Shown here piece by piece: positions 15,651 to 53,355 of a stretch of DNA of 64,000 nt. Both the position numbers and the translations under genes were made by a program. Under the pieces are notes generated by a model that was given only the letters and a program-made list of their open reading frames with translations, ran no database searches and was not told the origin of the DNA. Origin of the DNA: Nemertoderma westbladi (taxonomy: Eukaryota; Animalia; Xenacoelomorpha); NCBI GenBank assembly GCA_032718475.1, contig JAUCBJ010001884.1, forward strand, positions 19,475 through 83,474, written 5' to 3'. The stretch's first letter is position 1; every line of letters starts with the position of its first letter.

Positions 15651-16132
15651 GCTTATTATACCCAAACGATGAAGGAAGATGGTAAGGTAGGTGGGAAGGT
15701 GGGAATCAAACGATGTTTTTACCTTCCAATTGAAGGAAAAGAGCAGGTTACAGCGGCGGCAATTTCTAACCAAAACAATAAACGATGTTGTTGAAAATTT
15801 TCACCCACCGCCGAAAAATACAAGTTTCAGAATTCTTATGCAATTTTTACATATTCCATTGAATTCAGAACCCTCACAAATCCGTATAACGCAAGAAACC
15901 CAATACTGCCATATATTTCCGAAAAATACAAGTTTGAGATGTATATACTATATATAGTTGTTAGAAAAATATTCATTCCGTCAAATTCAGAGCCCCTTTA
16001 AACCTCTAAAATGTAAGATAGAACTATGAGTTGTCACAATCAATTGAACTATTGAATGAATTTTCAAAATTTCTTGCTGGCACCAAATTTTGCACACGGC
16101 ACCGAAAAATACAACGTTGATGATATGCCTGG

Positions 16133-16718
16133 TGATGAATTATTTCACTATAAGATAGCATTTGTAGTTTAACTTTAACGTAAAAACTTTCGAAAATCCG
16201 ACGCATTTTGATTAAGTTACAGTAATGTAATATGCCTATTCATATTTGTATACATAAAACCCCTAGTTACTCTCGTGGCGTAGTGGTCAGATGGTTAAGG
16301 CGTTGGTTACATTACAGATAGGTTACGAGTTCGAATCCCGGTCGGGAAATTTGTATTTTGGGGCCATTTATTTTCATTTGGTACAGATTGGTAAGCCAAT
16401 GAGGTGCGTACAACGTATCGAACGATGAGTTGGGCCAATCATAGGGCATGGAATATCTTATTGCTCCAATGTGAGGCCATCGAATACTCTCGAAGGTTCT
16501 AGTGGATTCTATGTCCCAGATTTAGTATATAAAGGGCTGGTTTGCCTTCGGTTATCACACACATTTGTACTTCACTACTTCTTACTTACTCTTGTAAACT
16601 TGCTGCACTAGTTGCACTAATCATTTCGTTATACTTTGTTGGTTTCTTGTTGAAACTATTGTAATTCTGTTTGATAAATCTTTTGCTAAACTGTAAATAC
16701 ACTGCAAACTTCTGAACA
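16133..16718 (+). repeat. 5' LTR core (586 bp) of BEL2
   Basis: TGATGAA...TGAACA; several CCAAT boxes and TATATAAA (~16526); 2 mismatches by eye versus 38345-38930; followed by a T-rich spacer and PBS-like TGGTCCAACC at 16729. Confidence 0.75.
16270..16347 (+). other. tRNA-derived Pol III promoter-like segment inside the BEL2 LTR (second copy 38482-38559)
   Basis: A-box TGGCGTAGTGG, B-box GTTCGAATCC, downstream T-runs; no clean cloverleaf. Confidence 0.6.
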
Positions 16719-19159
16719 TGTTTTCTTTTGGTCCAACCTTGGGACAGCCAAACATCGGGAAGATGGCAGCCTAGACCGTTAGGCCGTCAGCAACGCAGGG
16801 GAAAGATGTCCACAACACGCTAGCGCCCACATTGGATTTGACCGCGCACCCCCTTCGCCCTTCGAAATACTCCACTTGCCATGCAGCGCCCGCTTTATGA
16901 GGAAGGTAAGACTTTGTTCGACGCCCTTGCCCGCCGTAAGACCTATAGATCAGGGTAAGCGTGACGCCGTCCTGGACGCCGCAAAATTTAGGATCAAATA
17001 ATTATATTTAGGCAGAAACCCCCTTTGTCAGTCCTGCGAACCCCTGGGTTAACCTGTATTTCTCACAGGTGCGAACTATTGCCATTCGTCAGTACGCGAG
17101 TACATAGGTACGGACAGCATATGTTCCATAATTTAGTGATTCGTAGTATTGACTGTTTGGTACCGGTTCGCTTTGTAGAACATACATTAGTACCCCACCC
17201 CCCCTGCCTGAAGTTAGTTATTTGATCAGGCAAGGAGTATTTCTGCTACCGGCACACCGCTTGGCCTAGGGAGGTTTTATTAATATCCTACCGCGCCTTG
17301 CCACGTACTGATAGGTATTGCTGCTAACTACCGCGGCAACAAAGTTCTAAAATCAAATTTGTATACCAGATCAGCTAACGTCGGTAGCGATTAACCCCTA
17401 TTTCTTATCTTACAACCAGAATCTGGTATTAGTGCCGATCACGGGTGTAGTTACTAACACCGTGGTTGCCCATTGAGTTGTGGATAGGAAGGAGAGAGCT
17501 TTGACGTCATTTGTAAGTATAAAGTTCTACAAACGCGACTAGCTTATTTTAGTAGCTAGCGCATGGTATCATTTCGGTCAGAAAATCACTAAAACCTAGT
17601 GAAAAGGTATACACCAAAATTGTTTTATTTGTAACACACCCACACACACACGCCCTAAAACATATTTACCCTTAGAGTTCTACTAGTTATAGTGTACTAT
17701 ATATTACTTTAGGCAGAATTTATCTGTATTTGTAAATTAGGATCTGATATTTAGTTACGGCAATAGGGAGTATTTCATTTTCGTTATTAAACTGTTGTTT
17801 TCTGCTCAGCAGTATTGTTACATTAGGCACGACCCTCTTTCGACTGATTTAGGACTGAATCAGTGTTGTTACGCTAGGTCTGTTAACCCACTAGCTCGTA
17901 TATAAACCATATAAATCACACCGCGGCAAGTTACGGTATTTAGGACTGTCAGCGATAGTTAGGATTCGCTGCACGGGGATTGTTTTCCCGTGAGTTTGGT
18001 CTGTTACTGTAACTGTACATCTGCCTCACCGGTTAGAGGACAGGTATCCTTTTGTCTAGTTCGTAGGCATTAGACCCGCTCACGTACATAGAATAGACAC
18101 TAGGCTCTGTTCCTCGCCAGTAGTAGTTTGTGTATTGTATCTGTTTGTTTAGATATCCTGGACTCGGATTTGTTGTCAGATACTGTACGAGCCCGTATAC
18201 ATTACTAGATCTTACGGTAAGATACATCGTTACTAGGATCCGGTAAGCGGTATACTACTGGACCTTACAGTGAGAAATATTTTCTCTTACGAAAGTAGGA
18301 AATATATATCCAACCGTGAGGTTTCTCACATACTGTTAGCTATTGAAAGTAGGAGATATTTAAAAAATTAAGGTTAGTAAATTTAGTAATTTGAAGAACG
18401 TCCCCTGCTTCAGTAGGCTTTTAGGGTAGCTAGTACTTTCGTATTTAATATTTGACTAGCTAATAGTTAGTTTGTAGCATTTTGTTTTACGCCGTGTGTG
18501 TGCGGTGTTACTTTTCGGTACTTGAAAAGGTACATAGGGTTTAAAGACCAAGTTGTATCGGTACCTAGGAAGAATTTCGTAGCGTAGAAGTAAAACTCTC
18601 ACCTTCGACTTTTCAGGACTCAAGGACTCATTTCTGGACCGCTTCGAGGATTAGACCGCTTTTCGCAAAGTTTGGGAGACAATAAATTCGTCCACGCCGC
18701 CGAAAAACGGAACAACCCACGTCCGGTTTGTATTTGGGAATTTGCACGACTGGAAGATCAAAGGAATGTAAGTTTTACGACTCGTGTCGTTCAAACTTAA
18801 GAAAGCACAGTAGTACTCAAAATTTGTGGGTTTCACTGTCTAATTAGTAGTGTTGTTGGTACTTATTTTCCCGTTAGACATTGCTGTTTTGCCTATTATT
18901 TGTACTTGTTGATCTACATTTTGGTAACGTATACCGTTATCTCATTTATTCGTACAAATTTAGCCGGTAGGCTAGATTATTACATATTTCATTATATACT
19001 TTGATTTTATTTGTACCGGTTAGGGTATATATATGGTATATATATATATATATATATATACTAAGGTAAGTTTGACATTTCGACATTTTGACATTTCGAC
19101 ATTTTGATACTTTGACATTTTATTACCCGTACTTGACATATATAATAAGACATTTTACG

Positions 19160-19725
19160 CGTTTTACGCGAGTTGACCGCCCCGATGTCGAGATACGAGT
19201 TCTACACCTTACAGGTAAGGATAGAAAGTCGGGTACAACTTTACAAAGGTAAGAATAATCGATAAGTGCGAGGGAAAGCCTCATCCAGTTTAAATCAGTA
19301 GTAGGATTGGCTCAACAAGAGCAACTCGACCAACTGATGGGTGAGTCTGTTTCCGACACGTTGTTACATCCCGAAGAACTATATCGCCTGGACGGAAGGT
19401 TAGAAACGCTCACCGATTTTCTTCATAGATGTGGCGTACCAATCGAGGAACCGGATGTTGAACCGCAAGGGACGACGGAAGTTCTAGTTATGGAAGGCTT
19501 GCGAGCCTACCCTGTTCCACCACTGGACCGATCATTCGTCAGCGTACGGAGCGATGCCGGCGACGTTAGTAGAATGACATCGGTGATAACTCGACAACAA
19601 CAAGAGGTTGCACGCCAACAACAAGTCGCCGAGGAAGAAGCGCAACAACAGATGGCACAAGTTGCTATTGAGGGAGAGAAACAACGCCGAGAAGATGAGG
19701 CGAAAATCGCGAAACTTCAGGCCCA
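19160..19725 (+). pseudogene. Diverged, internally deleted duplicate of the BEL2 gag 5' region
   Basis: ORF 19307-19768 aligns to 20480-20910 (LAQQEQ..GRLETLT..DRSFVS..QQVAEEEAQ). Confidence 0.85.
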
Positions 19726-19950
19726 ATCTTTGTTAGTTTTATTTGTACCGGTTAGGGTATATATATGATATATATATATATCAAGGTAAGTTTGATATTT
19801 CGACATTTTGACATTTCGACATTCTGACTTTGTTGATTTATTTGTACCGGTTAGGGTATATATATACTATATATACCAGGGTAAGTTTGACACTTCAACA
19901 TTCAGACACTTTGACATTTTATTACCCGTACTTGACGTATATAATAAGAC

Positions 19951-22900
19951 ATGAGTGACACACCCCATTCGACAAGATACCCACCTACCGACTATGACTC
20001 GTGCGACCCGGACAGATCGACAGTAGACGAACCGAGAAGGAGAACCCGAGATTCCACCGATGTCACACCGCTTGCGTCGCCGGTACCCCGAACGGAAATA
20101 CCGGAAGCCGCAATGCGTAGCGACGGCAGAATCGAAGATTTCCTTACCGTCCTGCAGACTAAATCGCGGGAACCGGACATGGTAAGTTCGACTGGAAGCC
20201 AGGAGAACGTTATTAGGAGTATAGGAGGACACATGGCCCAGATTACTCGGAACCTCAGAGAAGGTTTTCGCGTTTTACGCGAGTTAACCGCCCCGATGTC
20301 GAGATACGAGTTCTACACATTACAGGTAAGGATAGAAAGTAGGGTACATGCCTCCGTAGAAAAACTTAAAGGTTTAGACGAACTTGCAGAGTTGCGTGGC
20401 GATAACTTTACTCAGGTAAAGATAATAGACAAGTTGGTAAGTGCGAGAGAAAGCCTTATCCAGTTTAAGTCGGTGATAAGATTGGCTCAACAGGAGCAGT
20501 TCGACCAACTTCTAGGTGAGTCAGTTTCGGACGCATTGTTACAACCCGAAGAGGAAGAAGAACTCTACTGCCTGGATGGGAGGTTGGAAACGCTCACCAA
20601 TTTTCTTCGTAGATGCGGCGTACCGATCGACGAACCGGAAGTCGAACCGCGAGGGACGACGGAAGTTCTTACTACGGAAGGCTCGTGAGCCTACCAAATT
20701 CCACCAATGGATAGATCGTTCGTTAGCATGCGGAGTGACATTGGCGATGTTAGTAGGACAGCGTCTGTAATTACTCGACAACAACAGGAGGTTGCACGCC
20801 GACAACAAGTCGCCGAGGAAGAAGCGCAACACCAGATGGCACAGATTGCTATTGAGGGAGAGAAACAACGTAGAGAAGATGAAACGAGAATTGCGCAACT
20901 CAAGGCACAAGCCGAAGTCGAAGCCTCAGAATTGAGAAGATTAGAGGAGGACTTAGCACGACAGAAAGAAGCATCTGACGCGCGTGCTCAGTTGGAGGCA
21001 CGGCAAATAAAATCACGTTTAGCTATACAGGAAGCGGAGTTAGCGGCACAACAACAAGTAGCGGATCGACGCGAAAGGGAGATGCAACTACAGTTCGAAC
21101 TGAATCGTAGATCGCGCGAGGCAGCGAACGCGCAAGCGGACCTTGAACTCGACGCGAGAGATAGATCTATAAGATCGCGAGCTGGACACGACTTGTCTGC
21201 CCTGGATCGCATGGAAGCTCGATATCGCGGAATTCAGAAGCGAATCGAGGAAGGAAGTGTGGGAGCGATAGATCGAGGAGAGGAGTTCGTCGAGGATTAC
21301 TGTAGACGTTTTCCCCAAGTTATTCCTATGCTCAAACCCACGACTCCGATAAAACTGGTCTTTGTTACGAAACCTAAGGAAATAATATATGTGCTTTCGA
21401 CGCAAGGCAACAGGTTTGTTGTGACGGAAATACCGCAACCTAGGGCGACTTCATCGCCAATTTTAGCAGGTAACATAACTAGTCCACCTACAGTAAGTCA
21501 TAGTCTACTTGTAGGAAGAGAGGAACCTGCGTTTATGACCATTAAACAGGTGAGTAAACCATTACAAGTTAAACCTGTGACGTGCTGTGCGAACCCAGTT
21601 ATTTATAGATCGACTACGAAACCCGACTATTTTACTCAACCCTTGACACAATGTTCGACGCAACCTACGACTTCATGGAAGGCTTGCGAGCCTATCGAAC
21701 TACGGAGGAGGATGGATATGGGTAGTACCCACGGGATCGAACAACGTATAAAGAGACCTATGACTTCGTGGAAGGCTTGCGAGCCTACCGAACAACGGAG
21801 AGCCGTAGATCCCAGACCACAACGGACGAGACCAAGAATAATACGCCGGACGCGAAACCGCCAGCCACCTTATCCGGACGACAACGACTCATCTAGTGAC
21901 TCGGAGTCGACGGAACGGGAAATATTCCGTACTGGAGCGGCGGATGATTACAAACGAGAGGAACGATCGACGAACACCTATATCGATAATCCTCCACGAG
22001 AAACACCCCAACAGAAACCCACGTTGAAACCAGCGGAAACGATCAGCGCCAAACAGTTCACCGAGATGACAGACCGAATAGCTCAACTCGAAGAACGACT
22101 CGAAGCGCAACCGTCGGATCGATCACGAACCAGCGTGGAGTTGGAACAACCTAGACAACATCGACCACCAAGGAGAGAACAGGAGACTAGACAGACTCCG
22201 ACCCATCGAGAAGAAGATCCCGTTAATAATTCCTACCGACGAACAACGCGCGGAAGGGAGCGACTGGACGACGCCGCCGAACAGGGACGCGGACAGTTGG
22301 ATTTGGTTAGCGAGATTGCGAAATTCGCGGCTAGACACGGATTACCGGCACAGCAACCGCCGAAGTTCTCTGGCAACGCGAAACACTGGCGCACACTGGT
22401 AGACTATGTAGAGTCCCAGATCGCTAAGTGTGCTTTCACCTCGACGGAGAAGTTTAATTACTTGCTCTTAGTCCTGTCTGGTGAGCTGAAACGATTAGCG
22501 GAAACCTTTATTGGTGTTCCCGATGCCTTTGAGTTGGCGTACGACCGTTTATATTCGATTTACGGAGGTAACGTCGCCATGGCTAAATCCATTATCGAAG
22601 ACCTCTGTAGAGGAGGCAGCATTTCGAAACCGATCGACCTTCTACGACTCGCGGACGAAATCAAAAACGCTATAGGGACTTTACGGTCCATTGGACAACT
22701 CGAATACGCTAACGCACCGACGGTTCTCATCAGGATAATCGGTCGACTTCATCATCGACTCCGACGAGAATGGCGACGCATCGAGTACCAGCGTGAAGAG
22801 GCCGGCGGGCTTTTAAAACTCACCGACATCTACCAACTGATTTCACGGGAGGCTGTGATCGAGACTCGATCGAACTATACCGATCACCATATCGCGGCGG

Positions 22901-25900
22901 AAGGGATAGCTATTTCTGCGCCGAATCGGACCAAACCATCTCCGACGAACGCGAAAGCCATTACCTACGCCACCCCTACTGAGACTTCTAAAGTTCTGAC
23001 GCCTATCGGCACCACGCAGCCACGACAACAGTTGCCAGCGGACTTTGTGGGATGCTCATACTGCGAGCGGAATGGCAGAAACCATAGCGGACATAAACTT
23101 TGTGGATGTCGTGCTTTTAAGGAGTTAGGGATTGAAGAAAGAAGACTCCAGATTCGATCATTAGATTCCTGCTGGAGATGTATGAAGCCAGGATACGTCC
23201 GGAAGGATTGCCCGAGCGACACATGTCCTCAGTGTGGACGTAACCATGACGCGTTGCTCCACACAACCAGTCATACTCCAACCAAACGCTTTCGACGAGA
23301 GCATCCAGATAAAGCGGCTAGATGCGACGCGCTTTATAAGGAGCGTGCGCCGCGCGAGATCCGTACCTTTTGTGCAGATTGTATGGATCAGTCAGGATCA
23401 TCGGACGAGGAGGAAGACGACACTTTCTACGTGCATGCAGGTGAGGAACAGCCATCGATAACGCTCCTCACACAGAACCAATTGAAAGGGTTTAGCGTGA
23501 TTCCTATAAAGATTACCGGAACCCGAGGGAGCAAGCATATATACGCTATCTTAGACTCTGCGTCATCGCATAGTTATGTCGACGAACAAGTAGCCGACGT
23601 GGTTACGGACATGAGTCAAGGTAAGACTGCTCAGTATACTGTAAGCAGCATGCATGGTAAGAGAGCGATCCCTGTGACGAGAGTAAAACTAACCTTAGAC
23701 ACTCTTCTTTCCAAAGCGGAACACAGCAAGGAGGAGCGCTCATTACTTCCGGTAAGAAATTTGACCTTTGCAGCTACGAAGGACTTTGGTAACTTGCTCG
23801 GCCCTGTGCCAGAGCAATCACCGGAAGATCGTAAGTATTTCCGACACCTTGGAATACCGGAATGTCCTGTTAATTATCGTTCCATTGCGATGTTAATTGG
23901 GACAGACCAGTTTAACTTACATCAGGTATGGGAGACACGCCCATCTGTTATTACAGCGGGCAACCCCTACGCATGTAGAACTCCCATAGGTTGGTATACT
24001 AGAGCACCAATACGTTCACTAGAGGTAAGTGACCAGGAGGACGACGTTTTGAGTACGTGTAGTTTATTGACTAACACGATAGATAATTCTCCTTCACACT
24101 CCTGTGGTCCAATTGTACGGACGGCACTACGACAGACTTGCGTCGCTAACGCAGACGCCACCGATACTGACGTAACTGATCTGGACACGACCACACGGAC
24201 CTCTGACTTACAACTACTTGCAGCAAACCAGGTTGTATTGTCTACTGAAGACCAAAGGGTTGTTGCCGTGGATGACTCGATGAACGAGGATTTTGGAAGG
24301 CTTGCGAGCCTACCGAAAAATCCGAAGGTCATTGACCCCACCCACCAAGCTTCGACACCGGTCGTTGATCTTGGAAGGCTTGCGAGCCTACCGACAGATC
24401 AAGAGGTTGTCAAACTGCCACAAGACGATTCGACGCCGACTAGTGACGCCGGAAGGCTTGTGAGCCTACCAGACACATTGACACTAGCCACCACAGCGGA
24501 CGAAGACGTGGACGAGGACCATGGCGCAGTGCAAGCAGCGCTTGACCGACTGCTGACTGAACGGACCATTCAATGGTTGGAACAGGATTCAGCAGAACCC
24601 GGTAGTTACGAGACCGCTATGTCAGAACAGGAAAAACGGTCATTAAATATTATGAGAGATACCATTCGCCAGACCGCGAATGGCCACTATGAGGTTGGTA
24701 TGTTGTGGCGCAATGGACAACCTAAACTCGTTAACAATTACCCGCTTGCTTTGAGGCGACTCAAATCAATAAGGCAGCGATTGTTGCGAGACGAGACGGC
24801 CCATATGCAATACAATGCACAACTTCAGACGTATCTCCAAAAGGGATACACCATTAGGATGTTAAATCCCGAGGTAACCTTAGACCAGACATATTACCTG
24901 CCACATCATTTTGTTCGACACCCGGACAAACCTGGCAAGGTGCGTGTAGTCAACGACTGTGCCGCGCTTTACCAAGGGATATCTATGAACAGGGAATTGA
25001 TGGACGGGCCGAATATGAACAATTACCTCATGGGAGTCCTAATGCGTTTTAGACAACGCAAAGTGGCTTTCACCTGTGACGTAGAGGCCATGTTTCACCA
25101 GGTTAAGGCTTTGGAGCGGGACAGGGACAGCTTGAGGTTTCTTTGGTATCTGGACGGAAACTTACAACTTCCGCCAGAAACTTACCAAATGCAGGTAAGA
25201 GTATTCGGAGCCAGGGACAGCCCCAACTGCACCATGTATGCATTAAAGCAGATCGCATTGGACAGACGAGACCAATTTGATCCAGAAGTAGTTCGGACCG
25301 TGGAACGAGATTTCTACGTGGATGACGGCCTCAAGAGTTCTGACACCTTGGAGCGCGCTACAACCGTAGCACACCAACTCCAAGATTGTCTCGCTGAGGG
25401 CGGATTTCACCTGACGAAGTTCGCTTCCAACGAACCCGAACTGGTGAACTCATTTGACCCGATGGATCGCAGTGGAGGTGATTTAGACTTAGACCTAGAA
25501 CCTCTGCCGACGACCAAAGTATTAGGACTTAGTTGGGACCCTAACACCGACAATTTTAGGGTACGTGTAAGGTCCAACGACCAGACTAGACCTCTCACTA
25601 AGAGGACTTGCTTATCGACCATGAGTCGATTGTATGACCCATTGTGTTTCATTAGTCCAGTGATCCTACATGCTAGGATCATACTCCGCAGCATTTGGCA
25701 AGCCGGACTGGAATGGGACGATCCCATCCCAGAAAAGTTAGCTGAGCGATGGAGGGACTGGGAAGCCCAACTGACGTTCCTACAAGACTATACCATACCG
25801 AGGGTATACTTTCCTTTGCAAACCACCTTTCCTGCTGATTTAGAGCTTCACAGCTTTAGTGACGCTAGCAAGGATGGATTGGGGGTTACTTTATACCTTA

Positions 25901-28737
25901 GACGACAAGTGACATCGGACAGCTACGATGTGTCTCTCGTTACTTCAAAGGCTAGAACAATGCCATTGAAGTATATGACTGTACCTCGTGGAGAGCTGCA
26001 AGCCGGGACGATATCCACCGATATTGTCAGTCTAGTTCAACGCGAGCTGGAGGCTAACTTGAAGGTCACATATTGGACGGATGCGACGTTGGTACTTTGG
26101 TACATAAACAATGAAGCGTTTGAATTCAAGACTTTTGTAGCCAACAGACGGGCTGAAATACTAGACCGGTCGCTCAAACAAGATTGGCGTCACTGTCCAG
26201 GGAAGCTGAACCCAGCTGACATCGTGTCGCGGGGGATGCAACCGCTTGACTTTTGTAAACCGGACAATAAATCCTTTTGGTTTAGAGGACCCGATTTCCT
26301 ACAGCGACCATCAGACGAATGGCCACCGTTATTCGACTAGACAACCAACACCATACCAGAGGGTGCCGAGATAAAAATCGACAAGGTTGTCAAGTCCAAA
26401 GCGAAAGCCAACGCCAAGGTCAAGAGGAAACAAGGACGGACGAAATCTGATGACCTGGACGCCAGACCTGACATTACGCCAGACGTCTCACCAGACATTC
26501 GACCAGACGCTTGTACGAATCCTTCGCCGGATGTTCCGCGGGAGATTTCACCAGACGTTTCGCCGGATTGTTCACCAGATTACTCGCCAGACTATTCACC
26601 AGAAGTGACACCAGATTGTTCTCCGGATTATTCGCCAGATTGTTTTATGGAACTCTCGACAGAATGTCTACCGGACGTCTCACCAGACTTTCCACCAGAC
26701 ATCTCGACAGACTGTCCACCAGACTTTGGACCAGACTTTCTGACAGAAGTTACGCCAGACAGACTTTGGGACCGACGACAGGACATTTCGCCAGACGTTC
26801 CGCGCTATGTCTCACCAGACGCCTCACCAGACTGTTCACCGGACGCTTCACCAGACTGTCTACTAGACACTCCACTAAAAGACCCATTGGAGCGGACTTT
26901 TAGAGACTTACCGAATTTGACTTCTTTGGACGACAAAGGTGTGGCCACAGCGATCACACTCCGCTCAAAGAAAGTACTTGACTTACCACCTACAGGTAAA
27001 CGTGTGACTAAGGTTAGGAAGCTTACAGGCTCACAGGAACACACTGATACTGTAGAGTTGAAACCGTTACTGTCAGTCGACACATTAGGTGCGGACGGTA
27101 AAGGTAAGACCGTAAAGGTTGACGTACTTGGGGACTCAGACAAACCTACCGGAAGGCCCGTGGGCCTACCAAGTCCAGACAAGTATCCACACTACGACTA
27201 CACCTTACCTGATGACATCACTAACACTTACATTGACCGGATAGTGAACCTAACTAGATCATGGACTGACGCATGCCGCAAGTTAGCATGGCTCAAACGT
27301 TTGAGACAATATGCCAGAGGCGAACGCGACTTTCCTAGAAGACTTACCTTAAAGGAAGTTGGCCACTGTGAAGTTGATATCATTCGACATTATCAATTGC
27401 GATATTTCGCACGAGAGTTCACAGCGATCAACCAAGGTAAACAGATTAAGTCTTCACCGATTTTGAGTTGGAGTCCGATTATTTACCAGGGCTTACTTTG
27501 TCACAAGTCCAGACTCCAAAACATCGACTTTGCACTTGACTTCAGGTATCCTATCATCATACCGCAACACCATGAATTACAGCGCGCTATGATACTGGAC
27601 GCACATGTACAACTCAAACACGTGGGTAGACACCACTGTCTATCACACTTACGCTCGAGGTTTGTACTGATTAGACCTAGTAAGGCACTGAGTTCGGTAA
27701 CACGGAACTGTATGATTTGTAAGAAGGTGCACGCGAGGATAGGACACCAGGAAATGAGTGAACTAGCATTAGCTAGACTACAGGCGTTTAGACCCCCTTT
27801 CACTGAGACAGGGATAGACTGTTTTGGACCCATAATCGTGAAACGCGGAAGGGTACAGGTAAAACGTTGGGGATTGATCTTCACTTGCATGGCCAGCAGA
27901 GCTGTCCATATTGAGCGTGTGACAGATTTAACCACCAATGCCTTTATCCTAGCCTTACGGCGATTTATCGCTAGACGTGGATTGGTCAAATCCATTTACT
28001 GCGACCAAGGGACAAACTTTGTGGGTGCACGGAACGAGATAACCAGAGCTTTGAGAAAGTTGGACCAAAACCAGATTTCCGAGGAACTACATCCTCACCG
28101 TATTGTTTGGAATTTCAACACTCCAGACAGTCCGTGGAGAGGCGGCGTTTGGGAAAGGCTGATTGGCTCAATAAAGACAGCTATGGCTAAAGTGATACCG
28201 ACGCAACACATAATGACAGACGACCAACTGACAACGTTACTAATAGAAATCGAAGCGATCTTAAACACTAGACCGATCGCTTTGATCCCAGACAATAACG
28301 ACGCACAGTTTGCCTTGACACCAGCGCACCTGCTTATGCAGGCGCCGACGACATTGTTGCCCATTTCGGTACCCGTTGATAGTGACAGATACGGCAACAA
28401 GGCTTGGAAAATCACTCAACTACTTGCAAATAAATTCTGGGAAATATGGCAGAAATATTATTTGCCCTCTATTTCGACCAGAACCTCTTGGTATCTAAAT
28501 ACCCGATGTTTGAGACGTGGTGACCATGTTTTATTGGCTGAAGCTAATCTGAAAAGACGGTTTTGGCTGACTGGAGTCATTTTGACCACACACCCTACAT
28601 CTGGTGTAGTGAGGACAGTTACTGTAAGGACCATCGACGGGCGTACCGTAGATAGGCCTGTACAACGTCTCGTACTCCTTGAGGAAACTAGAAACGAGAC
28701 AGGAGACTACAAATCTCCACCCAATATTAGTAAATAG
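19951..28737 (+). pseudogene. BEL/Pao gag-pol polyprotein (~2,930 codons) with two in-frame stops (20686-20688 TGA, 26338-26340 TAG)
   Basis: Three ORFs in one frame; PPKFSGNAKHW, Zn knuckles, ILDSASS (PR), CDVEAMF/FYVDD (RT), HSFSDAS (RH), HVQLKH..CMIC, GIDCFGP, CDQGTNF, GGVWERL (IN). Confidence 0.93.
26455..26865 (+). repeat. 12-bp coding tandem repeat (x-S-P-D)n between RNase H and integrase
   Basis: Repeated TC(A/G)CCAGAC-NNN units, in frame with pol. Confidence 0.85.
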
Positions 28738-30435
28738 ATGTGGGACCTTTGATGGCCGCCACATAGCTTTACCGTATTTTAGCAATTTAGTATTTTGTAT
28801 TACTGTATGTGCATTTGTAATCCTCTTCACTGTAGATAGAGACAGCGGTGGAATTCCATTGTCTTTATATGTGAACATGGAGGGTAGTACCCTTATGTAT
28901 CACATAGGAGCGGGATTGTGTGTACAGTAGGAATGGAATTCCACTTGGAACCCACAAGTGAGACAATTTTTCAAAAATTATTAGACAAATCCATTTATTT
29001 GGATTTAAATTTAAGAAAAACGATTCTCCAGTGAATGCAAATTCTAGAATACAGCTAGATAAAAATTAAAATTGGGGAGGACAAGAGCGGATGGAAGGCT
29101 TGCGAGCCTACCGATAAATTTTTTTGGAAAAAGAAAACTGGCCTTGTTCTACGTAGTCGTGTCTACTATTATTTAGACCAATTAATTCTCGACTGCACTA
29201 TTTTCTTTTGGGAACGTAGTGGGGAAATTAAAAGGTGAGTATTTTAGACTCGCGGCTAGTTTACCCGGAATTCGTTTTTTATCGGCACAATATTTTTGGA
29301 TTAGGAGCCAGTGCGAAATCACACGAACCCGAAGTCATTAGGCAAATGGGTTGGGGTTTAGAGCAGAGTTGAGCCAAAAGCCGACAAACTCTAAGTCACC
29401 TCACATCTAACCTCTATTTTGTGCTTCATCTAGTAGAATCGTAACGATATGTAACCATATATATTCGTATACGATGGCGGAGAAGATGTATAAGGAGTTA
29501 CGTCAAGGGTTTACGCAAGAACAAGAGCACCAGGCGCCATTTAATCGTTATGGAGCTAAAAACTTTAGTGTGTTTGGAGTGGAGAGTATGGCTAGGAGTA
29601 CAGCCAAGCTCGCTAAATCCAAGGCGGACCCGAATGTTACGCGACAGCGGTTGGACGCATATAACAAAAGAATGGAGGAATTACACGCGGAGTTCAATGC
29701 GTTATATTCCTACGATGCGTTATGCGACGCTAGCGACATTTGCGAGGATCCAGACACTAAGATACGCCGATTGTATCATACGCTGCAATACTTGACGGTA
29801 AATGAACCCTTACCTGCAGCTAGAGACGAATTCGAAGGAATGCATCTTTATAGACGCGCTCGAGGAGCGGATCCAGAGACCAAGGACGCGTTCTCCATAT
29901 ACAAACTGTTTTATAAATGTGGAGCGTGTATGCGTGAGCAAGACAACGCGATTCCTATGCGGTTGAACTCGGAGAACCCCGAGCCGATATTAGCGCGATG
30001 TTCACACCACCAAAGTCTATGTTACTAAGAAGGCGGATACCCTTTGACAAATCCGTATCATTCGTTTAAAATGAGTGGACCGAACGCGGGTGAAATTGTT
30101 ATTTACGAACCCAAATTAGTCGAACCAGACGTCTACAGAATGGTAGTGGACGAGTCTAATAAGTCGACACAAGAGAAACGGGAAGCTTTGAGCCTCTACA
30201 GGGCGTACAAGGCGTACGAGAAAGGCGAGATCGAGGAGTTCGGTGGAAGGCTCGCGAGCCTACCATTCTATTGGATATCCCACGATCAAACCGAACCCAA
30301 GGAGATGACACCCGAGCTCTTCGATAGTATCACCTTTGCTCAGCGTTTGTCGCAGAGACTACAGATACCTCATGTCGAGATGACGCGAGAACCTCAGCCC
30401 CATTCTACTGGAGCGATAGTACCGGTTGCGAGACC

Positions 30436-33400
30436 TGGTATGTCAGGCTGTCCGGTACATAGCCAGACATCTGTAGCCTGTAGGCTGAGGTAAAAGTGGA
30501 TGCTGGAGCGACACAACCGGTCAGTATAATATAATATAAGCAGAATGCAAGCAAGATATGTAGGCCCGTGCCATAGACAGTAAGGGGGAATAATGAAATA
30601 GGCCTATACTGTATATATCCATACCAACTCCCCCTTTAGGCGATTTTGTCAGATCAAAATTGTTTACAGTGAACCCCATACACCATATTATAGTTTAAAA
30701 ATAATAAATGACTATTCTAGTGTAATAATTAATTTTTATAGTCTCCAAATCGAACGGTAGGTTTTGTTACACGAGTGCTGCGGCGTATTACGCTCTTACT
30801 TTCAGTTTCCAACTCCGGTGTTGGAACTGTTTTCTGTTGGGTTGGGTTCGGTGGTGTTTCGAGTTCAATGACCTCGTGGTAGCGACGGAGAAAACGTCTG
30901 TTTCGCCACCATGTACGACCTGAAGGTAGTTTAACGTGGTAGTCTCGTCGTTTTCCGGCCCCAACTATAATACCGACACGATCCCAACGTTTAGATCTGG
31001 AGTCTTGGAGGCGAACTTTTGTGCCTATTAGGAATGGTTTGAGGTTCCGCGCCGTTGAATTGTAGTGTTTGACGGCTTTCTCGCGAATAAATTCGTGTCG
31101 TGCGTCAGCTGTCTCGGCTGACTGCTGCCACTTCGGGTCAAATGAAGTGTGATGGGCTGGTACACGCGATCGCAGGTTGCGCCCAAAAACGATCTGGCTT
31201 GGTGAGCGACCATCCGCGTGTGGTGTGTTCCGTACCTCGAGTAAACCTTCGAGGAATTCCTCAGAATTTATGTCTGAGGTTGTCGTTTTTGCCAATAGAC
31301 CTTTAATGAGTTTTACGTGGCATTCCGCATGCCCGTTACTGGACGGAAAATGCGGCGTACTAGGCGCCCATTCGACCCCCCAACGTTGCAGGAATTTCCT
31401 AAAGTTGGATGCGGCGAATTGAGGTCCTCCATCGCTTCGAAGTTTGGTTGGAACGCCTAAGTCGACGAAACATTTCCGTAACACGCTGACGATTTGTTGT
31501 GATGTTGTTTATTCCCGGCCAGTAGACTGCGGACCGCGCTCTTTGTTTCGTCCGCGTCATACCCTGGTGGGCAGCGTGTAGGCGTTCTAGAATTTCGGCT
31601 CGTTTCGCACTAGGTATAACCAGGCGTGGACCATATAATACCAGGCCGTTATCTACGGAGAGTTCGTTATGTATGGATTTAAATTGCTGGACGAATCCGG
31701 AGGTGTGGTTTTCAGTTGTGAATCCGCTTAGGATTTCAGTAACTAATTGCTGATAGGCCTTATCGTTTAAGGCTACCTTCCGGATTTCCTCGATAACGGG
31801 GTCTGTTGTAGGTGGTTCTAGAACGTTTTTAGGATCTAAGTCCCGAGTATTAGTTAATGCTATCCGTATAGCTGCTATGGTTCTTGTGACATCGTCATCT
31901 TCCTTTAATAATTCATCAGTGGTATCGGGGTCATCCACTGGAGCTCGGCTGAGACAGTCTGCAATTTTATTGTCTTTACCTTTTTGCCACACTAATTCAA
32001 ATTGATATTTCGATTGCAGCTGAGCTTTAATTCGCTGGAGTTTTGTATTATCGACTTGATCCAGGGTTTGTTTATTGAAGATTGAAAGTAAAGGCCGATG
32101 GTCAGTCATAACTTTAAAACTTTCTAATCCAGCTAAATATAGGTGGCATTTACTCATTGCATATTTTATAGCAATGGCTTCCAATTCTATTGTGGCATAC
32201 CGGGTTTCGGCGTCCGATATAAATCGGCTTCCACAGGCAATGAGCTTCCATTTATTATTATTATTTTGCAGTAAATCGAAGCCAAATCCGTGCAATCGAC
32301 TGGCGTCTACTTCTAACCGTGTTTCAGCGTGCGGATCGAAGGGTACCAGGATTGGAGGTTTTAGAAGTGCGTATTTAACAGCCTCGAATGCATTATCATG
32401 CATTATTTCCCATGTAAAATGGTTGCGAGTTCGTAGTAACTCGCGCAACGGAGTCGCTGCAGCGCTGACTTCCGAGGAAAAGCAACCGAGTTGGTTAACG
32501 AGTCCCATAAAACTTCTGAGTTCACTTATGTTAGTTGGTTTGGGAAACTCGGAGATTGCCTTTACTTTGTTGGGGTCTGCCTCGATGCCGTTGTGTGAAA
32601 CGATATATCCTGCGAACTTTACTCGTTCTTGAGCGAAGTTGAACTTTTCAGGATGGAGGGTGATGCCAAAATCCCGACAGCGTTGTAGAACCGAACGAAC
32701 GCGTTCAACGTGAGTGTCAAACTCGACATCCTCGATGAGTAGGTCGTCTACGATTTTATTTATGTTGGCCATACCCTCAAAAGCCATGTCTCCCCTATAA
32801 TTATATGAGTCCCCGGTGGATATGAAGCCCATCGGGGCCCGGCAGTACCGGAACCGGCCCCACGGCGTTAAGAAGGTAGTGAGGTCTCGCGATTCTTCCG
32901 CCAACTCGACTTGCCAATAACCAGACTTAGCGTCAATTTTTGTGAAATAACGCGCGTCTGGTGTGCGGTCTGAGACAACGTCGAAAGGAGTTTTGGCATT
33001 GTGTATAGTTCGTTTCACCTGATTATTTAATTTGGTAAGGTCAACCGTGATACGAATTTCATCCGGTCGACCGGGTTTGGGGCAAACAACCATGGGATGA
33101 CACCAATCTGTGGCCCGGTCACCCACCCGTTCAATGATGCCTTTGTCCAACATGTCGTTGAGTTCGGCGTGGGCTTTATCTCTGTAGGCGTAGGGTATAG
33201 AGCGGGTGGCGTAGATGCACAAAGGTTTTGCACCTTCCTTGACTTCTATAGTCATAGGGGGACCCAGCATCGGTTTAAGTTGGCCTTTGATGGCAAAGAC
33301 GTCACTAAACTCTTCCAGAAGTTTTTGTTTTATTTTGTCTACGAGTTCAGCATCTATGTTAATAGGTGCAACCACTTTATTTTCCTTCACTAAATGGAGT

Positions 33401-35415
33401 GGTGTGGGGAATTCGTCGTGGACGATGTTGAAGGCTTTACAAGCTGTAAAGGAAAGATAAATATCTTTAATTCCGTCACAAATATAAACCCATTCGTTGT
33501 AACGCATGTTTTCAATCTGTAGAGTTAGTTTTAAACGTCCTATACATTTTATTGGATTGCTGTTTATTGCTTCCAGTGGCTCGTCTAATTCTCTAAGTTT
33601 ATTTATAGATATACCGAGGCGATTTAGAATACCGATTCCGCCAGCGGTGACGTCTGCGCCGGTGTCTGCAATGCAAGCGCTTGTTGTTAGCAGTTTCCCC
33701 GTACCGGTATGCACGAATTGTACGGAGATGCGAGGTTTACCGGCCTCCCGGGCTAGTTCGCGTGGTTCGACGCCAATTTTCGCGAGGGAAATCGCACCGG
33801 AAGTTGTCTTCTTTGGTTGGCGACATAGATGGGTGAAGTGGCCGATACGTTCGCATTTTTTGCATTCGCGGCCGATGGCTTTACACGGTTTATCTTTCTC
33901 GTGAGGCCAAACTCCACCACATTTCCAGCAGCGATTATTGTCTCGTATTTGTGGATGGGGTTTGAATTGTCGACCTTTACTGGAGCTCCGTTGGCTATCT
34001 GACTTACTAAAATTACGCCCTCGGTTCTGAGGTTTAACTGCGTTAACTTTGTATGTCAGTCGTTGATCTTCCCGAACAGCCAGCTCCCGATTACGGCAAA
34101 AATCGACAGTTTCATCGCGGGATAGGGCAGGCCTTTTACCCAAAAGTTCCTGACGTACCTCCTCATCCCGTATACCGCAAACTATTAAAGTGGAGATCCA
34201 GTCCTCCTTTGTCATAACTTCGATGTTTGCGTCATCCACCAGTTCGCACAACTGAATGTAGTAATCGTCGAACGACTGTTTTTCTTCCTGTTTAGTCCGT
34301 ACCAGTTTGTAACGGTCTACAGTTATATTCTGTTGTGCGCGGAGGTGTTCCCGTATTTTTACGAGGATTTCGTCCGTTGACAGTCGGGTATCTTGAGGAA
34401 TTTTGACAGCATAATGCATCCGGTTTAGGAAATCAGGGCTGCAGTATGAAAAGAACGTTGCCACCTGATCTTCCATAGGTTTGCTGTCGAGTTTTGTCAC
34501 CCGGGCATAATTGCGCCATGTTGTCTCCCACCGTTTAAATGTTTTGTAGGAAACGTCATCCTCGATAATGTTTGGCGGGTGTACAGTGAGTTTGGTTGCC
34601 TCGCGGTCTTGGGGACGTCTGGAGCTTCCGTGCGTTGCCGATCCCGGGCCCGCAGCTGCTATTACGTCGCGCTCTTCCCGCAATCCCTCAAGTAAACGCT
34701 GTTGGTTTTGATCGACGAGGTAGAGGAGTTGTCTGTGCTCTTCCGCCCGTTCTCGTCGTTCAACCCGCTGTTCTTCCATTCGTTTAGCATCCTGGTCGAC
34801 AAAGTGCGCGAGGAGTTTAGCTAAATCGGAACCTCCGACTTCTCCGGTTTGTTCAGGTTCTGATTCTGCTCCTTCTACGAACTTTAGCAACCGTTTTCTA
34901 AGAACCGTTGTTGCCGTTCTGTCGCTGTACTTAATTCCGGCATTTGCGAGGTGTGCTTTAATAGTTGCCCGGTCAAGGTGTTCTATCGAAGCTGGATCAA
35001 TTTCCCACGTTTCATCCTGGGTTGGGAGTTCGTCCATCACGCAAATTAAATATGTTTTTTTAATATATGAAATTTCAAATTATTACCGGTAATTATTAAG
35101 CAAGCATAGTCAGAACGTGCAGAAGTGCAGTCGATCGATGATCGATCGGTGATATTGCAGTGCAGTTTATTGCGTAAGTTCAAGCGCAGCGCGGTACTGG
35201 TACTGCGCCTATCTCACTGCGCCATGGTATGTCCGGCTGTCCGGTACATAGCCAGACATCTGTAGCCTGTAGGCTGAGGTAAAAGTGGATGCTGGAGCGA
35301 CACAACCGGTCAGTATAATATAATATAAGCAGAATGCAAGCAAGATATGTAGGCCCGTGCCATAGACAGTAAGGGGGAATAATGAAATAGGCCTATACTG
35401 TATATATCCATACCA
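30436..35415 (-). mobile_element. Gypsy (Mag-like) LTR retrotransposon nested in BEL2 ORF2
   Basis: 191-bp LTRs 30436-30626 and 35225-35415 (TGGTATG...CATACCA, 1 mismatch); TSD AGACC; PBS TGGCGCAGTGAG; PPT AAGGGGGAGT. Confidence 0.95.
30729..35040 (-). pseudogene. Gypsy gag-pol with an internal deletion/frameshift in the integrase N-terminal part (~31500)
   Basis: Double knuckle CWKCG..H..C..CKKCERIGHFTHLC, IADTGA, KIDAKSGYWQ, IVDD, VDAS, TDHRPL, LHAAHQG..YWPG; then jumps to SDGGPQF/SNGHAE, with no CxxC or first catalytic D. Confidence 0.9.
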
Positions 35416-38344
35416 AGACCAACTAGTTTTCCTATTAGTATACCGACCCGGAAGGAGACAACTTACGAGATCCCTATAGTTGAACACCCGGAGATCATTT
35501 CGAACCTGGACTTCCTCCCATCGGTTACCTTTGGTGATGTGTTAGAGTCAGCCGAGTTGCGTAAAGTAATAGTTCAAAAAATCGTACGCAACGTGCCTCC
35601 ACATATTACGGACTTTAAGGAAGTGGATCGCGCGGGGACGGATATCGCACCTTGTATCTTGCGAGGATATCTGACGAGAACGATTCGATTATGGATCGGA
35701 GTTGGAACGTTTGAGACCGACACCGATATCACGACCAATTGGACCGGTAAACCTATTAGTTTCGATGATGAAAAGTCGATTGGGAGAATTTGGAACCCTA
35801 CCGACGATTTACTCGACGATTGGGACGTGACTAGCCGATCTCTAAAGGAGAATGGTTATATGTTTTACGATGATGAAGGAGGAAGCCATCAGCAAAGCCT
35901 CACTTCGAAGACTATACAGATTAGAGCACCAGATGGCGTGTTACATGTCTTCAGCCGACAGAGGAGTGATAGAAAGATGCCTATGCCGGAAGGAACGACG
36001 CAAAGACACGCGATGATAAAACGGATAGTTAAATCCATGGACCTGGCTTGTAGCATAGAAGCTAGGATATTACCAAAGGCCGTGCGAGACGTTGTGTTGG
36101 ACAAGAGCATCGTCAAGATCGGATCCGGTGTACGGGATGACCTTATTAGCGACTTTGCAGGGATGCCCACGGAAGAGGACCGATTGCCTACGCCATACGT
36201 GGATACTAGACCATTGTTGCTTTGGGCTATCGAGCAAGGATATTTTAGGGAGTATAACACGCTAAAAACTGGGACGGGTTATATCTCATATCTAATGTTC
36301 AGTTGGGATTACAAGGAGAGTAAGAGGAGCAAATACACGGATGTATACGGAGAGGGAGATACCCCCGGCGTAAACGAGTTCGAGTCACAGTTGAAGTGGC
36401 GAGGTTGCGTGTATTGGGCGATTACTTCACCTCCGCGAATAATCTTGCAATACTATTTAGCGATAGAATCTTCGGTTAACGTTTGTTTCATCGCGGATGT
36501 AGTATCCAGAACCCTAAAGCGACACCCGTTATGTCTCGGCGAAGGACATACCTTTTACGATGGAGGAAGGACGCATACTGATGTATTCCGACGATTTCTC
36601 CAACCCTTTTATAACACCGATGCGCACTGCGAAGTTTTCACGTGAGCGGGACTTAGCGTTTTCAGGGACGTCTATCTCACTCACGCGGGAAGTCTAGTCG
36701 ACAGACCGTCGATGTTAACGTTAGTACCCTACGACGGGGAACGCCACGCGGAATTCGAACGCCCGGAAGGATCCTGGAAGGCTCGCGAGCCTACCGCCCA
36801 TCACGACAATGTGGATCCGACCGAGTTGGCGCTAATAGACGAACCGTTGCGGCAACTCATAGAGATAGAGGAGAACCTTCCGAGGAAGACGCGAACTGAG
36901 ATACGCGAGTTGGAGAAAAGCGATGCCATGGTTTGTGTACAACCTACGGAGACGAACATACCGACTGACCCGGATGATGAGAATTATCACGTGGACGGTA
37001 GCGCTCGCCGGTAGACGGTGCACCCCGACAACAAGAATACTTGGAACTTTCAAACTGTGGTGAACAAGATTACCGCCGGAGAATTCGATAAACTGCGAGT
37101 TGAACAGCGGAATCGAGGAGCCTGGCATTCGATAGCTTGGGCATACCGGAGCGCATTTTATCACAAACGCGTAACCTCGTGTATTCTGGACGAGACCGAC
37201 GTTTTGCGTGAGACTGGCTTCAAGGCCACGTCGTTAGCAGAGAAGACGCGTCACCCACAGGATGATCAGCAATTTCGTATACTCAAAGCCCAGAAGGCCG
37301 GACAAGAGATAAAGAAGATAGTAAATGTCGCCGAGAGGACGACATCGAAGTCGCAAATCCGGATGACTCGGGGCACGGTTTCCCTCGCTAGAGAACCACG
37401 CGGAGGGACGGGATACGCTTTGCCGGAACCCATTAGGATTCAAACGACGTCAGAGAGCGAGGTGTCAGCGGACGGAACAGTCCCACCCTTTCGACTTCCT
37501 CATAGCGTTGTGGAGACTCGATCCGATGTTAAGCCGACAGTTGGAATCGGACGAGGATTTAGAGGATTGAGCGCACGACGGATGTGCGAAACTCCCGTCG
37601 TCCCCTTTCCTAGCGTTTTGGAACCACCGACAACTCGACGCCGAAGTCCGAGCCCAGTTCGACCTCGACCACCACCCAATCGCAATAGAGGACGTGGACG
37701 AGCCCGCTCAGCAAAGGAATAGGAAAGCGAGAAGAAGGAAGGCTTGCGAGCCTATATTTATATTCGGATATTATATTTCGACACTATATTTGGGTATTTA
37801 TATCGGACATTATATTTGAATGTTGGGTTTGGAAGAACAAGATATGGAAAGGAAGGCTTGCGAGCCTACCGTTAGCAATTAGTGCTCAGGAGAAGATATC
37901 CAGACCAGCAGGACGAACTTTCATATCGTCAAAGGGACACTTTAAGACTTATTTGGAAGTTATTAGCGCTTTATGTTTATTTTATATTTGAACTGATTTA
38001 ATTTGGTGGAAGTTTATTATGTATATTTACAATATATAAAGATTTATTGAAAGAAGTTACAATTATTTGTTCGATTTGTTTTGATTTATTTGTTCTGATT
38101 TGTTTAATTTGTTTATCTTGATAACCGAAAGCATTTTGTATTTTAGGCACTAAAGTTAATTGGTAAATTTGTATTTGTATGTACGATCGATTGTATTTAC
38201 GCCGTATCTGCAATATTAAGTATGCAATAATTAGATAGTGATTATTTTATATTTTAGGTCCCACCAGTAGATTTAGAAGTAGTTTGTAAATATTTTGTAT
38301 TTCGATTGGTGAAAACAGTCTTACTTACTGTTTTCATGGAGCGG

Positions 38345-38930
38345 TGATGAATTATTTCACTATAAGATAGCATTTGTAGTTTAACTTTAACGTAAAAACT
38401 TTCGAAAATCCGACGCATTTTGATTAAGTTACAGTAATGTAATATGCCTATTCATATTTGTATACATAAAACCCCTAGTTACTCTCGTGGCGTAGTGGTC
38501 AGATGGTTAAGGCGTTGGTTACATTACAGATAGGTTACGAGTTCGAATCCCGGTCGGGAAATTTGTATTTTGGGGCCATTTATTTTCATTTGGTACAGAT
38601 TGGTAAGCCAATGAGGTGCGTACAACGTATCGAACGATGAGTTGGGCCAATCATAGGGCATGAAATATCTTATTGCTCCAATGTGAGGCCATCGAATACT
38701 CTCGAAGGTTCTAGTGGATTCTATGTCCCAGATTTAGTATATAAAGGGCTGGTTTGCCTTCGGTTATCACACACATTTGTACTTCACTACTTCTTACTTA
38801 CTCTTGTAAACTTGCTGCACTAGTTGCACTAATCATTTCGTTATACTTTGTTGGTTTCTTGTTGAAACTATTGTAATTCTGTTTGATAAATCTTTTGCTA
38901 AACTGTAAATACACTGCAAACTCCTGAACA
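38345..38930 (+). repeat. 3' LTR core of BEL2
   Basis: Near-identical to 16133-16718. Confidence 0.8.
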
Positions 38931-40991
38931 TGTTTTCTTTTGGTCCAACCTTGGGACAGCCAAACATCGGGAAGATGGCAGCCTAGACCGTTAGGCCGTC
39001 AGCAACGCAGGGGAAAGATGTCCACAACACGCTAGCGCCCACATTGGATTTGACCGCGCACCCCCTTCGCCCTTCGTAATACTCCACTTGCCATGCAGCG
39101 CCCGCTTTATGAGGAAGGTAAGACTTTGTTCGACGCCCTTGCCCGCCGTAAGACCTATAGATCAGGGTAAGCGTGACGCCGTCCTGGACGCCGCAAAATT
39201 TAGGATCAAATAATTATATTTAGGCAGAAACCCCCTTTGTCAGTCCTGCATTTACTACTGTTCAATATTTAAATAATCCAATGGAAACAAAGATACTTGA
39301 ATCATGAGACGTGAATTTTAAGTTTACTTTTTATTCATCCTCTGTGTTTGTATGTGAAAGAGCCGAATATTATTTATTACCAGTGCTGTATGTAGAGATA
39401 TGAGTTTCCGATTCTGTTATTACATTTGTCTGATAATCAGATACCTGACATATACCGATACTTGCCTAACAACTCAACCCTACCGGACCTGAAATGAAAA
39501 ATCATTGTTATCAGGACTGCTACGCGTGGCACCTACGCGTAGCACCTACGCGTGGTTTCAAAATACCTACGCGTAGTTCCAAAATAACTACGCGTAGTTT
39601 TAAAACACCTACGCGTTGTTGTTAAAAAGGCAGTAAGTCTGGCCCTACCGGTAAATGACAGGAATGGAAGTTACAAACTACGCGTAGCTACGCGTAGCTA
39701 CGCGTAGGCCTACGCGTAGCTACGCGTAGGCCTACGCGTAGGTCGAAAAGATTTACCCCGAACTATTGCCATTCGTCAGTACGCGAGTACATAGGTACGG
39801 ACAGCATATGTTCCATAATTTAGTGATTCGTAGTACTGACTGTTTGGTACCGGTTCGCTTTGTAGAACATACATTAGTACCCCCCCCCCCCCTGCCTGAA
39901 GTTAGTTATTTGATCAGGCAAGGAGTATTTCTGCTACCGGCACACCGCTTGGCCTAGCACCTAGGGAGGTTTTATTAATATCCTACCGCGCCTTGCCACG
40001 TACTGATAGGTATTGCTGCTAACTACCGCGGCAACAAAGTTCTAGAATCAAATTTGTATACCAGATCAGCTAACGTACGGTAGCGATTAACCCCTATTTC
40101 TTATCTTACAACCAGAATCTGGTATTAGTGCCGATCACGGGTGTAGTTACTAACACCGTGGTTACCCATTGAGTTGTGGATAGGAAGGAGAGAGCTTTGA
40201 CGTCATTTGTAAGTATAAAGTTCTACAAACGCGACCAGCTTATTTTAGTAGCTAGCGCATGGCTGCATGGTATCATTTCGGTCAGAAAATCACTAAAACC
40301 TAGTGAAAAGATATACACCAAAATTGTTTTATTTGTAACACACCCACACACACACGCCCTACAGCCCTAAAACATATTTACCCTTAGAGTTCTACTAGTT
40401 ATAGCGTACTATATATTACTTTAGGCAGAATTTATCTGTATTTGTAAATTAGGATCTGATATTTAGTTACGGCAATAGGGAGTATTTCATTTTCGTTATT
40501 AAACTGTTGTTTTCTGCTCAGCAGTATTGTTACATTAGGCACGACCCTCTTTCGACTGATTTAGGACTGAATCAGTGTTGTTACGCTAGGTCTGTTAACC
40601 CACTAGCTCGTATATAAACCATATAAATCACACCGCGGCAAGTTACGGTATTTAGGACTGTCAGCGATAGTTAGGATTCGCTGCGCGGGGATTGTTTTCC
40701 CGTGAGTTTGGTCTGTTACTGTAACTGTACATCTGCCTCACCGGTTAGAGGACAGCTGTATCCTTTTGTCTAGTTCGTAGGCATTAGACCCGCTCACGTA
40801 CATAGAATAGACACTAGGCTCTGTTCCTCGCCAGTAGTAGTTTGTGTATTGTATCTGTTTGTTTAGATATCCTGGACTGGGATTTGTTGTCAGATACTGT
40901 ACGAGCCCGTATACATTACTAGATCTTACGGTAAGATACATCGTTACTAGGATCCGGTAAGCGGTATACTACTGGACAGCTGGACCTTACA
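38931..40991 (+). repeat. Continuation of the terminal direct repeat (copy of 16719-18269) with indels
   Basis: Collinear with the 5' copy except a ~510-bp replacement (39250-39758) and several short insertions. Confidence 0.9.
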
Positions 40992-42630: not shown

Positions 42631-42758
42631 CCTACTGGTAATACAGTAATAAATACCGAGTACAGGAGTACCTTAATCTACAATCTCATAATACAGTAAT
42701 AATATATATATATTATATTGGCCTAAAGTGTATGATCTTGATCTATGATAGTTTAGAA

Positions 42759-52800: not shown

Positions 52801-53355
52801 GCGTAACCATAGTTACACCCAACACTTGAGCTACACAAGTGTAACCATAGTTACACCCAACACTTGAGTTACACAAGCGCAACCATAGTTAGAATCCGAC
52901 ACTTGAGTTACACTAGTGTAACCATAGTTACACCCGACACTTAAGTTACACAGACGTAACCATAGTTACACCCAACACTTGAGTTACACTAGTGTAACCA
53001 TAGTTACAACCCGACACTTGAGTTACACAAGCGTAACCACAGTTACACCCGACACTTGAGTTGCACAAGTTTAACCATAGTTACAACCCGACACTTGAGA
53101 TACACAAGTGTAACCATAGTTATGCCCAACACTTGAGTTACACAAGTGTAACCATAGTTACACCCAACACTTGAGTTACACTAGTGTAACCATAGTTACA
53201 ACCCGACACTTGAGTTACACAAGCGTAACCACAGTTACACCCGACACTTGAGTTGCACAAGTTTAACCATAGTTACAACCCGACACTTGAGATACACAAG
53301 TGTAACCATAGTTATGCCCAACACTTGAGTTACACAAGTGTAACCATAGTTACAC
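49829..53355. repeat. 38-bp satellite array (~90 units), consensus CCATAGTTACACCCRACACTTGAGTTACACAAGYGTAA
   Basis: Directly visible head-to-tail units, no unique spacers. Confidence 0.95.

Follow-up and report, generated by a model that had tools for sequence, protein, structure and literature searches.

Third genes with nuclease likeness have been described in long terminal repeat (LTR) retrotransposons of bdelloid rotifers, in which Juno and Vesta carry a third open reading frame (ORF3) of DEDDy type with the motif DEED, acquired at least twice. According to the available text of PMC5408684, these ORF3s are common to Athena/Terminon elements, and their activity is putative; the available parts of PMC6431247 and PMC6338049 give the same account. 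The extra ORFs of BEL/Pao elements (semotivirus classification: PMC2774666) are presented as envelope-like in the available part of PMC13524379, with an F-type protein in roo and a chuvirus-like glycoprotein in a mosquito element. The window considered here is a stretch of 64,000 nucleotides from Nemertoderma westbladi (Xenacoelomorpha; assembly GCA_032718475.1, contig JAUCBJ010001884.1, positions 19,475 to 83,474 of the forward strand), to which all coordinates refer. It contains a BEL/Pao element with an ORF3 that is broken in this copy. Many copies of this BEL/Pao family carry ORF3, which is genuine cargo, and among these copies the central domain is under purifying selection. The central domain probably adopts a DEDDy fold of the WRN/EXD/RNase D type, as suggested by sub-threshold similarity together with the bdelloid precedent. 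Tentatively, ORF3 is read as a selected third gene, the central domain of which is predicted to be an active DEDDy 3'-5' exonuclease that works in the element's cycle.

By published description, not by sequence, ORF3 resembles the bdelloid proteins in being a non-env gene that follows pol, has RNase D/WRN-type likeness and lacks a membrane segment. In both cases the set of acidic residues is altered (DEED in bdelloids, candidate D-E-D-E here) and exonuclease activity is putative. The differences are the carrier, which is a BEL/Pao element here, and the strength of the homology, which is strong by HHpred in bdelloids but marginal here. Furthermore, the N. westbladi gene is multi-copy and under purifying selection, whereas the available text of PMC5408684 reports near-neutral variation in env and GDSL ORF3s, the DEDDy ORF3s being unsequenced there. 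The initial annotation of the window had assumed that a nuclease cargo of this kind was without precedent. For LTR retrotransposons this premise fails, because of Juno and Vesta (PMC5408684), and for BEL/Pao elements it appears to hold, as none that carries an exonuclease ORF came up in a literature search outside the reach of which lay most subscription journals and Repbase reports. The BEL/Pao host, the size of ORF3 and its divergence appear to be new.

With the envelope-like ORFs of other BEL/Pao elements, ORF3 shares the slot between pol and the 3' LTR, but it differs from them in lacking a signal peptide, a membrane anchor and a furin-type site. Analysis of the sequence, including hydropathy, detected none of these features and no RxK/RR cleavage site, and no hydrophobic segment was found in ORF3 (best 19-residue Kyte-Doolittle mean 1.48; N-terminal part nowhere above 0.4). 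Because signal peptide and membrane anchor are absent, ORF3 is not an env gene, in agreement with the initial annotation.

ORF3 starts with the ATG at 29474, 737 bases past the pol stop, and is split by a Gypsy element of 4,980 bp, which is flanked by an AGACC duplication (30431-30435 and 35416-35420). Removal of the Gypsy and one AGACC restores a single frame shared by all pieces, as had been proposed, and yields 319 + 768 = 1,087 codons. In this copy, the frame is broken by in-frame stops at 30026, 36643 and 37012. The Cys/His cluster (C149/C152/C176/H178/H179/C183) and the R/P-rich basic tail noted in the initial annotation are both present. The parts of the locus are as follows:

29474..30430, plus strand: N-terminal part of ORF3, 319 codons, with the Cys/His cluster and the stop at 30026; matches no family
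30436..35415, minus strand: Gypsy insertion, outside the ORF3 coding sequence, with gag, protease, reverse transcriptase (RT), ribonuclease H (RH) and integrase (IN) in this order; LTRs of ~190 bp, 99.5% alike
35416..37722, plus strand: C-terminal part of ORF3, 768 codons, with the stops at 36643 and 37012
35749..36490, plus strand: likely DEDDy-like domain, with ExoI, IQI strand, ExoII and YxxxE candidates
37580..37722, plus strand: Arg/Pro-rich basic tail of ORF3

Further copies of the family were detected as contigs of public sequencing runs aligned to this region (X1, X3, X4 and X6, with X6 possibly derived from RNA; the runs belong to no more than four studies, among which may be the source of the window). 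An empty Gypsy site (joint 30430>35416) is present in one X1 contig and two X4 contigs. The summed depth in X1 and X3, which does not equal copy number, amounts to 18,600-36,400 over ORF3 versus 88-194 over the Gypsy interior, and one 851-base stretch of the central domain (35650-36500) is matched by 970 X1 contigs with 80-100% identity. Neither of the stops at 30026 and 36643 is shared by any of the aligned depth in X1, X3 or X4, and both are therefore private to this copy; the third stop, 37012, is not among the 40 sites listed of 638. At 37009, adjoining this third stop, ten contigs from X1 and one from X6 diverge from the window sequence. There may be a deletion or junction at 37009 in this copy or its subfamily, and the C-terminal part of ORF3 in the family may differ from the one seen here. 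Thus, the family tail and the total length of ORF3 are not fixed by this copy, and the previously proposed length of ~1,090 residues agrees with the 1,087 codons of this copy only.

Within 35650-36500, the 40 best-supported of 121 variant sites were scored, and 29 of them are synonymous in the ORF3 frame versus 11.7 expected under the same change spectrum (binomial P=1.9e-8; each site was compared on its own with the window codon, and the sites are not independent, with the adjacent run 36436-36442 representing one contig per run). The same sites give nine and four synonymous changes in the other two plus-strand frames, and third codon positions account for 30 of the 40. The listed variants of this stretch include no indel. 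At three sites the window is at odds with virtually all X1 depth, each time by a non-synonymous change, as expected of a copy decaying after insertion. The abundance of ORF3 in X1 and the synonymous excess uphold the earlier suggestion of a selected accessory ORF, present in other copies and not evolving neutrally.

The coverage of the neighbouring sequence is uneven. In both X1 and X3, the integrase end and the spacer (28700-29347) have a summed depth, again not a copy number, of about twice that of ORF3. One X4 contig jumps from 30036 to 37592. Some copies may be devoid of ORF3 or contain a version that is less than 80% alike.

The likeness of the central domain to WRN-like nucleases was assessed with a family profile. 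A short motif led to 120 listed prokaryotic loci, 78 of which contain the domain; a search with 45 of these 78 returned proteins that all carry PF01612 (best 120 of 321), which extended the family to 199 sequences. The members of the profile are bacterial ('3'-5' exonuclease domain-containing protein 2') and include no eukaryotic protein. In hmmsearch with the 78-sequence hidden Markov model, the ORF3 piece ranks first of 70 targets (68 window ORFs plus two read-throughs) with E=0.013, and the next, unrelated target follows at E=1.9; the match comprises the ExoII block alone. The hhalign score of ORF3 is 33.4 (P ~4e-4), compared with maxima of 26.1 in 150 shuffles and 20.5 in 40 integrases. 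A score for seven ordered blocks, defined on the family, reaches 32.2 in ORF3 versus -9.2 +/- 6.5 in 1,000 shuffles (maximum 15.9), while the maximum among 148 real-protein controls is 12.7 and eight known DEDDy domains score 14.5-61.1; the z value is 6.1-6.8 over three parameter sets. An ESM Atlas feature search with residues 115-368, to which the family was not supplied, returned PF01612 in two of the top three clusters, where 29% and 36% of the members carry it; the ten best family matches have a common family or clan.

Several results weigh against this assignment. The Pfam check advised in the initial annotation (DNA_pol_A_exo1) did not bring up PF01612 even at a cutoff of E=10 (HMMER filters on), which leaves ORF3 below the curated threshold. 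ORF3 has no match in NCBIfam, PHROGs or the PDB sequences, none among 5.8 billion proteins of 421-1341 amino acids and no true one among 1.84 billion protein representatives; these two protein collections yielded no DEDDy ORF of Juno, Vesta or Athena either. The hhalign probability is 33-35% for ORF3 versus 97.7% for RNase D and falls to 0.3% in global mode. ExoII contributes 29.3 of the 32.2 block score, and the six other blocks are marginal, their score being reached by 107/2,000 and 53/2,000 anchored shuffles. The ESM Atlas scores of 0.77-0.78 lie below the threshold of 0.9 and provide a lead only, for a region chosen in view of the hypothesis; the C-terminal piece of ORF3 in its entirety gave no usable match there. 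PF01612 was chosen after the suggestion in the initial annotation, and the P values would fail a Pfam-wide correction. Structure prediction, likewise advised at the outset, was unsuccessful: the mean predicted local distance difference test (pLDDT) of the AlphaFold models is 33.6 for the single sequence and 46.3 with 28 family fragments of the middle block, and Foldseek matched neither of these low-confidence models (EXD2 at rank 47 with E=2 carries no weight). The second model was limited to the middle-block fragments because full-length WRN-like domains, and likewise mixed fragments, fell out of register in MAFFT alignments. Because it falls below the profile threshold, ORF3 is not classed as a PF01612 member. 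The WRN/Mut-7/EXD pattern seen in the initial annotation thus persists in profile, block and hhalign scores that exceed their controls, but it stays sub-threshold and Pfam is blank.

The sole match among the 1.84 billion representatives (P0003) is a tandem-repeat protein matched over 40 residues and was rejected as a chance hit, and metagenome, viral and plasmid DNA contained no ORF3 relative.

Compared with WRN/EXD2/Mut-7-type proteins (PF01612), ORF3 has in common the ExoII pattern LP..V...L.D..I.KIG.GV.DD, the VD motif, the order of motifs, and a DxE followed by a QI strand. It differs in an identity of just 12-24%, in insertions of 25-40 residues, in YxxxE instead of YxxxD, in a bulky residue before the favoured ExoI and in falling below the Pfam threshold. 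The ExoII block scores 29.3 bits, with the conserved D at 36139, and its K, G and D are invariant in comparison with the 28 family fragments. The IQI strand lies at ~35914. Its position and those of ExoII, VD and QYYLAIE had been given in the initial annotation and were recovered by an unguided ordered-block alignment.

The placement of ExoI was revised. The sequence named originally, GVGTFETD with swapped acids, was probably misplaced, as its block score is 1.2 bits versus 8.1 bits for KPISFDDE (D/E at 35764/35770), the best local score, while hhalign pairs the family GFDTE with GYMFYDDE (D/E at 35869/35875; local block score 1.0 bits). GYMFYDDE is favoured over KPISFDDE on the basis of sequence and model, because of the hhalign pairing, of the distance from DxE to the QI strand (14 residues, or 49 from KPISFDDE, versus 17 in the family), and of a helix-strand-hairpin in the second AlphaFold model (SRSLKE / FYD / TIQIR / LHVFS), in a stretch without homologue rows. 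Either candidate is a canonical DxE, and therefore no swapped acids are required. The ExoIII candidate YxxxE (36454/36466) speaks against the nuclease assignment, since it scores -5.6 or -0.1, at or below zero, and hhalign places the family ExoIII elsewhere. The putative active site would consist of D471/E473 (or D436/E438), D561 and Y666/E670 in ORF3 numbering, and would be D-E-D-E and not D-E-D-D. The codons of the candidate acids are absent from the 40 listed of 121 variant sites, which lends this assignment weak support.

If the central domain is an active nuclease, it would shorten RNA or single-stranded DNA from the 3' end at some point of the element's cycle. ORF3 would be translated from a separate message, because its start lies far beyond the pol stop, and the Cys/His region and the basic tail may bind nucleic acid. 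The substrate could be, as a guess, the ends of the element's RNA or complementary DNA, or host small RNAs aimed at the element. Mut-7 and Nibbler function in small-RNA trimming.

A less likely alternative is that the same DEDDy fold serves as a non-catalytic RNA-binding platform of the Egalitarian/EXD1 type, which would bind the element's RNA, perhaps via dispersed hairpins, and thereby serve its transport, packaging or shielding. The hairpins in question are the following:

19495..37867, plus strand: palindromic-core hairpin AGGCT-YGYG-AGCCT, 12 dispersed copies, two of them within ORF3 (30248 and 36779)

All twelve copies have the same orientation, where none is expected by chance, and they are spread over gag, pol, the spacer, ORF3 and the 3' untranslated part, with a stability of -6 to -9 kcal/mol. 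The copies in coding DNA are read in differing frames, which argues for a constraint on the nucleic acid. A metagenome scan for the motif found two loci that have the motif alone in common, and thus no related element. Besides the hairpins, RNA binding is favoured by the fourth acid, which is E rather than D, by the ambiguous ExoI, by the large insertions together with the basic tail, and by the Egl exonuclease-homology domain, which binds stem-loops without catalytic residues according to the available text of PMC13186709. This similarity to Egalitarian is a functional analogy only, no sequence link being shown. On the other hand, all four candidate positions are acidic and their codons are spared among the listed variants, nothing links ORF3 to the hairpins, and the motif variants are also compatible with a double-stranded palindrome that decays at CpG sites.

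A bolder version combines both activities. A DEDDy nuclease, captured independently by a BEL/Pao lineage and remodelled into a factor of ~1,100 residues, might read the twelve hairpins in the element's own RNA and protect or trim this RNA against small-RNA silencing, which we consider improbable. It is just as improbable that such a hairpin-reading nuclease would represent an animal, RNA-level counterpart of plant VANC anti-silencing. VANC, as described in the available part of PMC5735166, is a transposon-encoded factor that reads repeated motifs in its own element, and offers a functional analogy without a sequence link.

Somewhat less probable than a non-catalytic platform is a selected accessory protein with another or a new fold, in which case the DEDDy likeness would reflect one chance match of 25 residues. 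The blank standard searches, the dominance of one block and the failure of AlphaFold despite the DEDDy fragments supplied for the middle block are in line with this explanation. It is opposed by the correct order of the remaining motifs, by the ESM Atlas lead, which comes from an independent method, and by the precedent of bdelloid ORF3s with the same type of cargo in the same slot. Finally, ORF3 could be a diverged env gene or a captured stretch of neutral DNA that stays open by chance. This would suit its env position and the envelope-like character of other BEL/Pao extra ORFs (PMC13524379, available part), but is very improbable and largely refuted by the missing signal peptide, membrane segment and RxK/RR site and by the strong synonymous excess.

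The carrier of ORF3 is a BEL/Pao LTR retrotransposon, as identified by Pfam markers in pol (Peptidase_A17 E=2e-40, DUF1759 6.5e-9, DUF5641 2.8e-18). Pao-type markers occur together with the order RT-RH-IN, and TG...CA LTRs with a target-site duplication. The element is 24.9 kb long, or ~19.9 kb without the inserted Gypsy. Its long plus-strand frames (20689-26340 and 26341-28737) contain DUF1759, RT, Peptidase_A17, an integrase zinc finger and DUF5641. The nearest relatives of its integrase (best 120 of 1,299) all contain PF18701 and are just 32-42% identical, and therefore the protein collection includes no close element. The carrier is composed of:

16132..18269, plus strand: 5' LTR (BEL/Pao), TG...CA, with the target duplication CCTGG directly upstream
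19952..28737, plus strand: gag-pol, with DUF1759, RT, Peptidase_A17/RNase H region, integrase and DUF5641; stops at 20686 and 26338; the presumed start is the first ATG in the frame of 19948
38345..40991, plus strand: 3' LTR (BEL/Pao), 63 + 412 bp more than the 5' LTR, with CCTGG directly downstream

The two LTRs differ by 29 mismatches in 2,137 aligned bases, and the 3' LTR contains four micro-duplications of 7-8 bases. The start of gag is partly duplicated (19154-19726 versus 20265-20910, ~80% identical) and flanked by repeated AT-rich leader pieces, and a run of SPD-type peptide repeats (26341-26900) separates RNase H from integrase. An LTR-interior stretch at 16265-16345, with a copy in the 3' LTR, resembles by eye the box A and box B of a tRNA; neither ARAGORN nor Rfam gave anything credible there. 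Downstream of the element, the window contains an uninterrupted ORF of 1,311 codons (42642-46577), which has no match in Pfam and the start of which presumably resembles FAM21/WASHC2, and a long tandem array with a 38-bp unit (49856-53242).

If the DEDDy fold is true, DEDDy cargo extends from bdelloid elements to BEL/Pao, which would suggest that LTR elements have captured 3'-end nucleases more than once. Should the fold assignment prove wrong, ORF3 is still a large selected accessory gene without known relative. The central domain is unbroken in this copy and directly assayable, and it could thereby address the question raised in the available text of PMC5408684, whether such ORF3s are active and on what. 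The selection signal, unlike the published bdelloid case, indicates a gene of importance to its element.

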